Part shown: one piece after another, positions 3,188-5,138 of the stretch | Layout of the letters: every line of letters starts with the position of its first letter | Numbering within the stretch: position 1 is the first letter of the stretch | Origin: an uncultured Methanosarcinales archaeon | Lineage (GTDB): Archaea > Nanobdellota > Nanobdellia > Woesearchaeales > GW2011-AR9 | DNA length: 35,721 nucleotides | Assembly: GCA_964362485.1 (NCBI GenBank) | Contig: CAYIEX010000002.1 | Location: 1-35,721, forward strand | Direction of reading: 5' to 3' | The notes under the pieces: model-generated | The model's database searches: none | What the model saw: the letters and a program-made list of their open reading frames with translations, nothing else | Told to the model about the DNA's origin: nothing | Position numbers and translations under genes: made by a program

Positions 3188-3937
3188 ATGAATATACCCA
3201 AAATAATGGCCCTTATTACCACTATTCTTCTAATCCTGCCTCTTTTTGAGGCTGCAACTCTCAAAGGAACAATATATGACAGTAATTTGGAACTAGAAAA
3301 CAATGTTTTCGTCCAAATCAACTCAACCCCAGCTCAGCAATACCTTGCCAAAGAAGGAACATATCTTTTTGAACTGCTTCCGGGAACCTATCTGCTTACG
3401 GCCAACACAGAAACAACACGGATTCGTGAAACAATCGAAATCAAAGAAGAAGGCTCATTCATCTACGACCTTTTCATGCTCCCCTCCCTTGAAGAAGAAG
3501 AACAACTCTGGCAAGATACCCAAGAAAATCCGCTCGCTTCCATTGAAGAACCAAATTATGGCATTTGGCCGTATCTAGTCGCAGGGATCCTCTTTGCAAT
3601 TGCCCTTATCCGTATCATCTATTACCGCAGAAAATATGGCTCCGTAAGCTTCTTTCGAAAAAAAATAAAAGCCGAGAGTGTCAAAAGTCTTGATGAAGTA
3701 AAAGCAGAATTAGCACAAGAACCCGCCTATTTCGACCAAGCGTTAGATATCATCCATAAACATGAAGGAAGAATCTCCCAAAAAGAATTGCGTAGAGAAA
3801 TGAACTATCTCTCTGAAGCGAAAGTGAGTCTCATCGTTGCAGAGTTAGAACATCGTGGAAAAATCGAGAAGATTAAAAAAGGACGGGGCAACTTGATCTT
3901 TATTCGCAACAATGAGATCAAAACAGAGACCCGTTGA
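3188..3937 (+). CDS. Membrane-anchored protein: signal peptide, carboxypeptidase-regulatory-like beta domain, one TM, cytoplasmic winged-helix domain (COG2512-like architecture)
   Basis: Signal peptide MNIPKIMALITTILLILPLFEAA. Beta domain GTIYDSNLELENNVFVQI...EGTYLFELLPGTYLLTA. TM helix WPYLVAGILFAIALIRIIYY. C-terminal wHTH: ISQKELRREMNYLSEAKVSLIVAELEHRGKIEKIKKGRGNLI. Start trimmed from TTG 3179 to ATG 3188. Confidence 0.6.
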   Translation: MNIPKIMALITTILLILPLFEAATLKGTIYDSNLELENNVFVQINSTPAQQYLAKEGTYLFELLPGTYLLTANTETTRIRETIEIKEEGSFIYDLFMLPSLEEEEQLWQDTQENPLASIEEPNYGIWPYLVAGILFAIALIRIIYYRRKYGSVSFFRKKIKAESVKSLDEVKAELAQEPAYFDQALDIIHKHEGRISQKELRREMNYLSEAKVSLIVAELEHRGKIEKIKKGRGNLIFIRNNEIKTETR

Positions 3938-5138
3938 CCAAGGATTTGACCTTGCTGGCAGATACCACGATGAAATAGGACAGGTCCGACTTCTCAGTAC
4001 AGCTGAAGAATATGATCTAGCCGATAAAATTGAAGCAAGTTATTACCAAATCTTTGATGTACTATGTAACACTAGAATCAGTGACAGAAGACCACATTAT
4101 TATGGACTAAAACTTCTACGTGAATATCTCGAAAGCGGGATTAGAAAACAAGATATCGAAAAGTATGATGGATCCTTGCGTCGACGCCGAATATTGCCAC
4201 ACCAAGAAGAAGATGCAGAAGAGAGAGAACCTCCGCTTCGCAACAAACATCCAACAAAGCGTCAAGAAGCTTACTTTAATTATTGTTACAGAGAGATTTA
4301 TCTTCGTAAACCCATCCGCCAGGCAGGAATAAGTCTCAGTTCCATCCTCACAAAAAGCCACCACCATGAAGCTAAAAGTCTCTTACTACACGCTGAAAAA
4401 CAACTTGAAAAAGACCGAGAAGATTTCATCCTCGCCAATCGTCGTCTAGTAGCAAGTATCGCCAAAAAATATGTAAACTATGGTCTAAGCTATCTTGATT
4501 TAAATCAGGAAGGGTCCACCGGTCTCATGAGTGCAATCGATAAATATGACCATAAAAAGGGTCATAAATTCTCAACCTATGCAACCTGGTGGATCAGACA
4601 AGCCATGACTCGCGCCACTGCCGATCAAGGAAAGACCATCCGTCTTCCCGTGCACATCCATGAACTCCTTACAAAAATCTACCGAGTACAAAACCAGCTT
4701 TGGCAAGAATTGCATCGTGAACCAACCACCCAAGAGATTGCAGATACACTTGATTTGAAAATTGACAAAATCGTGCGATATATAGACCTAAAAGACCCCC
4801 TTCCCACTTCTCTTCCCGTAGGGGAAAATGAAGAATCTGAACTAGGAGACTTCATCCCCGATACTGATCCTAGTCCCGAAACAAATGTAAATCAACTAGA
4901 AGAGCAACGGATCCTTGACAATCATCTTAGAAAGCTCACGCCGCGCGAAGAATTTGTCATACGAGGACGCTTCGGTCTAGGTTCGTTAAGTATGCCGCAA
5001 TCCTACGGAAAAGACAAAACACTTGATGAAGTAGGAAATGATTTTGATCTGACAAGAGAAAGGATTCGTCAAATTGAAGCCAAAGCAATCCGAAAATTAC
5101 GACAAAAACTAAAATCCAAAGGATTAAATGATGACTAA
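3912..5138 (+). CDS. RNA polymerase sigma-70 family protein, RpoD/SigA-like (regions 1.2, 2, 3 and 4 present)
   Basis: Region 1.2: [23 protein letters not shown]. Region 2: [73 protein letters not shown]. Region 3: [28 protein letters not shown]. Region 4.2: [28 protein letters not shown]. The ATG at 3912 overlaps the upstream gene by 26 nt, and there is no other in-frame start. Confidence 0.85.
   Translation: [408 protein letters not shown]

Follow-up and report, generated by a model that had tools for sequence, protein, structure and literature searches.

By current understanding, transcription in archaea does not depend on sigma factors. Genes of the sigma-70 family have been reported in DPANN archaea, where they are "particularly prevalent in Woesearchaeota" (family fam00359), in a study that excluded mis-binning, detected no anti-sigma factors, and did not commit itself to a mechanism (Castelle et al. 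2021, PMC8204110). Here we describe one such gene, which encodes 408 amino acids on the forward strand at positions 3912..5138 of a 35,721-nucleotide stretch of DNA (assembly GCA_964362485.1, contig CAYIEX010000002.1), hereafter termed the window. The window is a case of the type reported in 2021, with a sigma-70-domain protein encoded beside taxonomically informative archaeal genes in a member of the Woesearchaeota. The window shares with the published DPANN set the presence of a sigma-70 protein on a contig with archaeal markers, the assignment to Woesearchaeota, and the lack of a recognisable anti-sigma factor. The main point of an earlier note on this DNA, a bacterial-type sigma factor in an archaeon, had thus been published before (PMC8204110). 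As far as we found, the published account reports presence only, and our literature search found nothing on the genomic context or population variation of DPANN sigma genes; a fixed genomic slot, a gene overlap, tandem arrays, and allele replacement are added here. As far as we found, the features that appear to be new are the recurrent slot between the gene for a DUF7343 protein and ileS, the exchangeable nature of the sigma cassette, and purifying selection on the DNA-reading and core-binding motifs of each allele.

The bacterial group 1 and 2 sigma factors (RpoD/SigA; RpoS- and SigB-like) have the same domain order as the window sigma, namely region 1.2, a non-conserved region (NCR), and regions 2, 3, and 4. 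They also share with it near-consensus determinants for the -10, extended -10 (PVHxxE), and -35 elements, a predicted fold like that of sigma in holoenzyme structures, and, for RpoD, about 50% identity across regions 2-4. Unlike them, the window sigma is encoded in a lineage reported to have the archaeal factors TBP, TFB, and TFE (PMC8204110), has no region 1.1, scores under every NCBIfam RpoD and RpoS equivalog cut-off, and falls outside the tight bacterial RpoD clade of a neighbor-joining (NJ) tree. Bacterial RpoD is among the most conserved of bacterial proteins, whereas the window sigma differs between close relatives.

A second comparison is with allelic cassette loci such as the quorum-sensing pherotype loci comQXP and agr and the capsule and O-antigen loci, which are subject to balancing or frequency-dependent selection. 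The sigma locus resembles these in having ancient, diverged alleles at one site, sharp breakpoints, near-identical flanks, and conserved bounding genes as potential recombination anchors. It differs in that only one gene, of the sigma family, is variable, and no signal, receptor, or surface-structure genes vary along with it. A third comparison is with MzaA, in which a sigma-70 C-terminal architecture is also used outside housekeeping transcription. The window sigma scores 287 against the MzaA cut-off of 800, has no MzaB-E neighbours, and has a different N-terminal part.

Results

Sigma-70 Gene and Its Archaeal Context

The window sigma gene was delimited from its open reading frame (ORF) and characterized by matches to Pfam, NCBIfam, the PDB, and Foldseek. 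All four Pfam sigma70 region matches exceed their gathering cut-offs. On the forward strand these are region 1.2 at 3963..4037 (residues 18-42; PF00140 Sigma70_r1_2, 24.4 bits, cut-off 22), region 2 at 4428..4634 (residues 173-241; PF04542 Sigma70_r2, 66.4 bits, cut-off 24), region 3 at 4662..4883 (residues 251-324; PF04539 Sigma70_r3, 67.4 bits, cut-off 25.3), and region 4 at 4926..5105 (residues 339-398; PF04545 Sigma70_r4, 55.5 bits, cut-off 24.1). The scores for regions 2 and 4 bear out their identification as sigma-70 domains in the earlier note. Motif tables place the core-binding helix and the -10 recognition and melting motif in region 2 and the -35 reading helix in region 4; the core-binding and -35 helix motifs are both present in the window sigma, and the motifs that had been quoted for regions 2 and 4 can be read in the 408-residue translation. 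Region 3 holds the sequence PVHIHE, which includes the extended -10 residues H455 and E458, and a sigma-finger-like loop. Between regions 1.2 and 2.1 lies a lineage-specific NCR at 4038..4406 (+; residues 43-165), defined by the alignment of alleles and by the number of nonsynonymous substitutions per site (dN). No Pfam match to region 1.1 (PF03979, Sigma70_r1_1) was found, and region 1.2 already begins at residue 18. Most of the best bacterial matches, unlike the window sigma, carry PF03979.

The presence of both region 1.2 and region 3 indicates the RpoD-like architecture of groups 1-2 rather than that of an extracytoplasmic function (ECF, group 4) factor. The closest solved structures are primary sigma factors, the top match being Bacillus subtilis SigA (7ckq_F, E 3e-69). 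An AlphaFold2 (AF2) model of the protein (pLDDT 74) matched the sigma70 and sigmaA chains of holoenzyme structures in Foldseek with E about 1e-16. RpoD models ranked first in the NCBIfam scan, and all of them scored under their own cut-offs: NF004208 gave 315.9 against 555, and TIGR02393 (RpoD_Cterm) gave 274.9 against 354. The RpoS model TIGR02394 likewise failed (221.6, cut-off 378.7), and the superfamily model TIGR02937 was the sole NCBIfam model passed. The description of the gene as a full-length, RpoD-like, non-ECF sigma-70 gene therefore stands, given regions 1.2 and 3 and the RpoD and SigA top matches. In an alignment with Escherichia coli sigma70, 24 of 29 functional positions checked are kept, with roles assigned as known for sigma70. 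The kept positions include D403, Q406, and E407 of the core-binding helix; F427, Y430, W433, W434, Q437, T440, and R441 for the -10 element; H455 and E458 for the extended -10 element; and R584, E585, R586, R588, and Q589 for the -35 element.

Archaeal-type genes in the window include those for ribosomal protein S6e, a prolyl-tRNA synthetase (ProRS) with a ProRS-C_1 domain, a YGR210-like GTPase, and FtsZ, alongside genes for a class I CCA enzyme and KaiC-like ATPases; scans of the window for tRNAs and Rfam families were empty. The genes around sigma have close relatives whose records name Woesearchaeota or Nanoarchaeota. The archaeal nature of the contig, argued previously from S6e, ProRS, and the CCA enzyme, is thus upheld. 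That the sigma gene might be an artefact (a bacterial/archaeal chimera, contamination, or the decaying relic of a recent transfer) is suggested by the database matches, which beyond one close homologue are all to bacterial RpoD at the top. Against this, the sigma gene lies within the span of its neighbours in GC content, GC3, and codon usage, no allele has a broken ORF, and dN is far below the number of synonymous substitutions per site (dS) in the conserved regions. The arrangement of DUF7343 gene, sigma gene, and (where seen) ileS recurs in independent assemblies (contigs L001, L082-84, L087, and L088/89) and in the genomes of 21 GTDB species, with the same junctions in at least eight independent assemblies. 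The chimera that the earlier note had warned of is excluded by the independent assemblies and the native composition, as far as sequence data allow, and we regard an artefact of any of these kinds as practically negligible. We are nearly certain that 3912..5138 is an intact, compositionally native sigma-70-family gene in the chromosome of a member of the Woesearchaeota.

In a bootstrapped NJ tree, the sampled bacterial group 1 sigmas formed a tight clade that excluded all 31 archaeal sigmas (bipartition support 0.94). The archaeal sigmas lay on long branches among RpoS, RpoH, and FliA; deep support was below 0.3, so that neither their monophyly nor a donor is settled. Viral origin or carriage was also considered and was rejected on scans of IMG/VR: the sigma protein found nothing there, and the sigma alignment found generic sigma genes only, without a DUF7343 or ileS context.

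Sigma Alleles between Conserved Flanks

Comparison of the window with DNA of related strains by sliding identity, blastn, junction alignments, and dN/dS revealed a variable cassette at 3931..5193 (+), which comprises sigma codons 7-408 and a 55-nucleotide 3' spacer. Identity is 94-100% outside these limits and about 50-70% inside. The junction alignments show both breakpoints to be sharp, one at about 3930 (sigma codon 6) and the other at about 5194, which is 41 nucleotides before the ileS ATG and leaves the ileS TATA-like box in the conserved flank. Four sigma alleles were distinguished, which are 44-56% identical and saturated at synonymous sites. Allele A is found in the window and in L087 (99.2% identical to each other), allele B in L001, allele C in L082/83/84 and P0296 (N-terminal parts only), and allele D in L088/89, where the adjacent DUF7343 is 69% identical. 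The nearest homologue of the window sigma is the allele B protein P0002 on L001, at 54% identity, even though the L001 flanks are closely matched at the protein level (DUF7343 95.5%, isoleucyl-tRNA synthetase (IleRS) 98.8%).

By Nei-Gojobori estimates, the flanking genes of close pairs have dS of 0.08-0.23 and dN of 0.004-0.025, whereas between sigma alleles the proportion of synonymous differences (pS) is 0.67-0.82, which is saturated, and dN is 0.37-0.47. The most divergent part of the protein is the NCR (dN 0.65), and region 2 is far more constrained (dN 0.13), dS being saturated in both. The window and L001 illustrate the pattern: dS is 0.225 (dN 0.02) for DUF7343 and 0.105 for ileS, while for sigma pS is 0.76, again saturated, and dN is 0.37. 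L001 and L082 have a DUF7343 dS of 0.076, yet their sigma N-termini are 48% identical. The discordance is not confined to these pairs. In 300 pairs of sigma-carrying loci, sigma and DUF7343 identities are almost uncorrelated (Spearman 0.11), and in the pair L021 and L004 the DUF7343 proteins are 83% and the IleRS proteins 87% identical while the sigmas share only 37%. Within the P0143 lineage, in contrast, sigma is 100% identical in eight contigs, among them L195, which has a short scaffold gap in the gene. Judged from these comparisons, the alleles are stable within populations and replaced between them.

All four alleles have a subfamily motif in the NCR. An exhaustive search with the N-terminal 165 residues against 1.84 billion representative proteins found only alleles B, C, and D, and a degenerate DNA pattern run against JGI metagenomes added no alleles, its sole return being a contig already among those compared. 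The shared, lineage-specific motif places alleles A-D in a single archaeal subfamily on this alignment, and it rules out a separate bacterial import for each allele. The saturated silent sites point to old alleles on young backgrounds. Hypermutation in situ or local positive selection is ruled out by this saturation, by the flank dS of 0.08-0.23, and by the identity of alleles within a population. The contrast between dN in region 2 and saturated dS accords with the purifying selection that had been proposed for the gene; by these estimates and the motif comparisons, purifying selection acts on every allele, most strongly on the residues that are predicted to read the -35 and -10 elements. Alleles A, B, and D have the same DNA-specificity residues, the one exception being T440S in allele D. 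Whatever drives the diversity would thus act on the NCR, on region 3, and on region 4 outside the recognition helix.

We consider it very probable that the sigma ORF is an exchangeable cassette on nearly identical flanks. The simplest mechanism would be a swap of alleles by homologous recombination through the conserved flanks. Alternatively, paralogues from an ancestral tandem array may have been differentially retained or sorted.

A second insertion-deletion polymorphism adjoins the sigma slot. Relative to position ~2851 of the window, strain L082 carries a 730-nucleotide insertion with a methyltransferase gene between a Lit-like gene and the region upstream of DUF7343, within flanks that are 92-95% identical.

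DUF7343 Gene and Its Overlap with the Sigma Gene

The gene upstream of sigma, at 3188..3937 (+), encodes 249 amino acids from the ATG at 3188; the mechanically called start is a TTG at 3179, and the TGA stop is at 3935-3937. Residues 187-241 match the Pfam family DUF7343 (PF24034, 55 bits). The AF2 model (pLDDT 83.8) has a hydrophobic, signal-peptide-like N-terminal helix (residues 6-23), a β-sandwich (26-95) that in Foldseek resembles transthyretin-like and carboxypeptidase-regulatory (CarboxypepD_reg) domains, and a transmembrane helix (130-153), after which come a basic stretch and a cytoplasmic winged helix (winged helix-turn-helix, wHTH; 183-242). Pfam and AF2 thereby agree with the anatomy that had been predicted from the sequence: a signal peptide, an extracytoplasmic β domain, one transmembrane helix, and a cytoplasmic wHTH. 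The protein has more than 860 homologues, and the named ones are from Woesearchaeota or Nanoarchaeota.

The sigma ATG lies inside the DUF7343 gene, as had been noted and as can be read at 3900-3940, giving an overlap of 26 nucleotides at 3912..3937 (+). The overlap is also 26 nucleotides in L001 and L082-84 and is 20 nucleotides in L088/89. The 26-nucleotide overlap argues that the two genes are probably co-transcribed and probably translationally coupled. A TATA-box-like element, TTTTTATAATTT, at 3158..3169 (+) is centred about 25 nucleotides 5' of the DUF7343 ATG and is a putative archaeal promoter of a leaderless DUF7343-sigma transcript. A second such element, TTTTTATATAA, at 5205..5215 (+), is centred about 25 nucleotides 5' of the ileS ATG, within the conserved 3' flank; it is 100% identical between alleles A and B and may be the promoter of ileS.

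The 346-nucleotide spacer that precedes the DUF7343 gene (2842-3187) contains a GC-rich hairpin, CAAACCGC-ttgc-GCGGTTTG, at ~2906-2925.

Slot between the DUF7343 Gene and ileS

The 3' boundary of the sigma slot is ileS, which encodes IleRS at 5235..8369 (+; identified by Pfam). One genome per GTDB species was scanned for this locus, giving 80 loci, 73 of them informative. Informative record titles among the 80 name Woesearchaeota or Nanoarchaeota. About 37 bulk-deposited metagenome-assembled genomes (MAGs) are titled "uncultured Methanosarcinales", which we took as a placeholder because their sequences are close to those of labelled relatives. DUF7343 and ileS are linked in most of the 80 loci. 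Directly 3' of the DUF7343 gene there are between one and three co-directional sigma-70 genes, in most cases no more than 100 nucleotides away, in 21 of the 73 informative loci; ileS itself, after a gap of 33-351 nucleotides, in 23; other ORFs and then ileS in 18; and something else in 11. Most sigma-positive loci with enough 3' sequence have sigma and then ileS, as in the window. The junction of DUF7343 and ileS is a recurrent home of sigma genes. The pairing of the membrane wHTH gene with sigma, which the earlier note had asked after in relatives, does recur (21 of 73), although 52 of 73 loci have no sigma directly 3'.

Three tandem sigma-70 genes follow the DUF7343 gene directly in two Woesearchaeota contigs (L060:10715-15127 and L066:2557-6994). 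These are orthologous pairwise between the two contigs (NJ support 0.91-1.00) and about 30-45% identical within a genome. A search of the sigma-less slots with a hidden Markov model (HMM) of the family (E <= 10) found no sigma remnants, and in a sigma-less lineage of 22 contigs the DUF7343-ileS junction is stable. Beside the uniform sigma of the P0143 lineage, this serves as a second control for the reading of the slot as stable within populations.

Other occupants of the slot were seen. In L078, a 424-residue second paralogue (11588-12859, +) lies between the DUF7343 gene and ileS, where others have sigma; its matches to CarboxypepD_reg (27.9 bits, cut-off 32.3) and DUF7343 (23.3 bits, cut-off 27.6) are weak. 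In L022 (JACPCD010000018.1, Woesearchaeota), the gene directly 3' of DUF7343 (10759-11709, +) encodes a 317-residue sigma-54 DNA-binding-domain protein (PF04552, 58 bits) with the canonical RpoN box ARRTIAKYR and without most of the sigma-54 core-binding region. Its family comprises some 45 proteins of about 315 residues, the few named ones being Woesearchaeota or "archaeon" records, and such mini sigma-54 proteins seem to be undescribed in archaea. Three other members lie in unrelated contexts, one of them adjoining an integrase-like gene, and Sigma54_DBD proteins were not confirmed as regular occupants of the slot. Precomputed Pfam annotation of L204 (GCA_053534955.1) shows, near a Sigma54_DBD gene, a small protein with Sigma70_r4 and RNA_pol_A_CTD, the C-terminal domain of the bacterial RNA polymerase alpha subunit (1096-1929, -), and another with Sigma70_r4 alone (2721-3143, -).

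Conservation of Functional Residues among Archaeal Sigmas

Across the 31 archaeal sigmas, the positions that read DNA are the best kept, with the residues of the -35 head at 0.81-0.87 against a background of 0.40. F427 and Y430 are kept at 0.87-0.94, and the residues of the -10 pocket in 74-94% of the proteins. Retention is intermediate in the core-binding helix, with values of 0.74-0.90 for D403, Q406, and E407, 0.52-0.58 for N409 and M413, and just 0.19 for L402. The sigma-finger positions are kept at only 0.06-0.58. Stand-alone Sigma54_DBD mini-proteins and proteins with Sigma70_r4 and alpha-CTD domains are encoded in related contigs, which suggests that bacterial promoter-binding modules may have been re-used as DNA-binding domains in this group.

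Other Genes of the Window

Two further genes of a typically bacterial kind were found, one for the lipoprotein intramolecular transacylase Lit (2284-2841, +; PF07314, 66 bits) and the other for the L-alanine exporter AlaE (21919-22428, +; PF06610, 49 bits). Upstream of the former, at 1661-2275 (+), is a gene for a prolyl isomerase of the FKBP type that has an IF insert and ends in a Cys/Gly-rich tail, GGCCDEKEDSEGGCGSGNCGSGSCGSDTCGSGNCCK, reminiscent of the metal-binding tails of SlyD-type proteins. Four consecutive genes for KaiC/RecA-superfamily ATPases of 370, 182, 194, and 511 residues (25734-29537, -) sit downstream of a gene for a 609-residue protein with an alpha-2-macroglobulin MG2 domain (23908-25737).

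Discussion

Taken as a whole, the explanation that we prefer is that of an intact, native sigma gene in an exchangeable cassette whose product is a DNA-binding regulator, and we hold it with somewhat less than even confidence. The functional part of this explanation, that sigma acts in the archaeon as a promoter-type DNA-binding regulator, is put forward tentatively. Region 1.1 of sigma70 blocks DNA binding by free sigma, and the sigma finger makes sense only inside RNA polymerase (RNAP). The regulator reading follows from the strong retention of the DNA-reading residues, the poor retention of the sigma finger, the lack of region 1.1, and the apparent re-use of promoter-binding modules. Sigma would be a two-headed, sequence-specific DNA-binding protein inside the archaeal cell, which uses its sigma2 and sigma4 domains to bind TTGACA/TATAAT-like sites. 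Without region 1.1 it would be freed from autoinhibition, and it would be co-expressed with the membrane winged-helix protein. We do not think that sigma serves as a canonical initiation factor. The suggestion in the earlier note of a non-canonical role is plausible; the action on the RNAP of a bacterial host that it entertained is not supported.

Several observations weigh against this explanation. The window shows no excess of promoter-like sites of the sigma-70 type (34, against 43.7 ± 6.5 expected), and neither do sigma-carrying loci (2.90 against 2.76 per kb), the latter being a weak test since a genome whose slot is empty may have sigma elsewhere. Also retained in the window sigma are the core-binding helix of region 2.2 (D403, Q406, E407), the tryptophans for melting, and the sigma-finger-like loop. 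The known roles of such holoenzyme-type residues need bacterial RNAP, and a stand-alone DNA binder would have no obvious need for them. The proposed DNA binding of sigma and its targets rest on sequence comparison. As to the cassette, recombinational exchange is deduced from four alleles only, of which B is represented by one contig of 2.2 kb and C by N-terminal fragments only; the three-sigma arrays in L060 and L066 make sorting of paralogues a possible alternative.

The holoenzyme-type residues could be accounted for if sigma docks on archaeal RNAP, for example with region 2.2 on the clamp coiled-coil, either to serve as an alternative initiation factor or to inhibit or modulate the enzyme in competition with TFE or Spt4/5. 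The clamp coiled-coil of archaeal RNAP is homologous to the bacterial beta-prime clamp helices, as across multisubunit RNAPs. Retention of D403, Q406, and E407 (74-90%) and of the -10 pocket (74-94%) in the 31 archaeal sigmas would fit such docking, as would the sigma-finger-like loop of the window sigma and the lack of any evident bacterial-type partner nearby. To our knowledge there is no precedent for the binding of a sigma factor to archaeal RNAP. Further, the finger is poorly kept across the family (0.06-0.58), -35 and -10 motifs are not enriched in either the window or the sigma-carrying loci, and TBP, TFB, and TFE are reported to be present in these genomes (PMC8204110). We judge docking on archaeal RNAP to be doubtful. 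The same residues, together with the identity to bacterial RpoD across regions 2-4 and the 24 of 29 holoenzyme, -10, and -35 positions kept, would also suit an effector that reprograms the RNAP of a bacterial host, prey, or neighbour, with the allele diversity reflecting host range or an arms race. Ancient, exchangeable alleles and tandem copies, of which there are as many as three here, are typical features of conflict loci, the lack of enriched promoter-like sites leaves no evident use for sigma in the archaeal genome, and rpoS-like genes have been reported in DPANN viruses (2025 paper, PMC12647753). Set against these points, sigma has no signal peptide or secretion-associated neighbour, its neighbourhood is one of housekeeping genes, it is coupled to a core membrane-regulator gene, and its DNA-specificity residues do not differ between alleles. 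Methanogens, not bacteria, have been proposed as hosts of Woesearchaeota. An effector of this kind is therefore, in our view, unlikely. More broadly, a cassette that functions with multisubunit RNAP, be it as the first sigma-type factor of an archaeal RNAP or as a transferable effector that takes over a bacterial partner's RNAP, with alleles and arrays kept by conflict or partner specificity, would explain the retained core-binding, melting, and sigma-finger-like residues, the lack of visible sigma-type promoters of its own, and the conflict-like population signature; we hold this, too, to be doubtful.

The membrane protein encoded upstream invites a different explanation, in which DUF7343 and sigma form an anti-sigma/sigma-like pair and an extracellular cue frees sigma. 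The genes overlap on the same strand, their adjacency in 21 of 73 species loci is far above that expected of random placement, and the topology of an extracellular sensor-like domain joined to a cytoplasmic domain fits a transmembrane signaller. Pfam, AF2, and Foldseek, however, found no anti-sigma domain in the protein, only the DUF7343 wHTH and the transthyretin-like domain, and a winged helix is not a known anti-sigma domain. In 52 of the 73 informative loci no sigma lies directly 3' of DUF7343, DUF7343 can be 99% identical (2 differences in 215 aligned residues) beside sigma N-termini that are 48% identical, and Castelle et al. found no anti-sigma factors (PMC8204110). The anti-sigma or sensor partnership that had been suggested for the two genes finds no backing in these data, DUF7343 being 94-99% identical while the sigma alleles differ by about 50%, and we regard it as quite improbable. 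On this evidence the DUF7343 protein is a conserved neighbour of sigma, probably co-transcribed with it, and not a co-evolving partner. It is very improbable that sigma belongs to an anti-virus defence system, as does MzaA in MZA. MzaA is among the top NCBIfam matches (286.7 bits) and is the sole PADLOC match, and defence loci typically carry hypervariable cassettes at fixed hotspots. The score is nevertheless far short of the 800 that the MzaA model requires, the PADLOC match is confined to the generic C-terminal part of sigma, the slot holds a single gene, and no other Mza components or defence genes adjoin. Membership in MZA was rejected on the score and on the neighbours, which are DUF7343 and ileS rather than MzaB-E.

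An entire DPANN lineage has retained intact sigma-70 genes that are under selection, and their role has been a question since they were first noticed. The locus described here offers handles on that role: its operon partner is defined, its slot is fixed and open to survey across genomes, and it comes with a natural series of alleles. Alleles A-D, in which the DNA-reading residues are kept and other parts are varied, are ideal for binding and swap experiments. If sigma engages archaeal or bacterial RNAP, the view of how the two initiation systems interact would change. If, as we prefer, sigma is a stand-alone DNA binder, a basal bacterial factor would have been re-used as an ordinary regulator.

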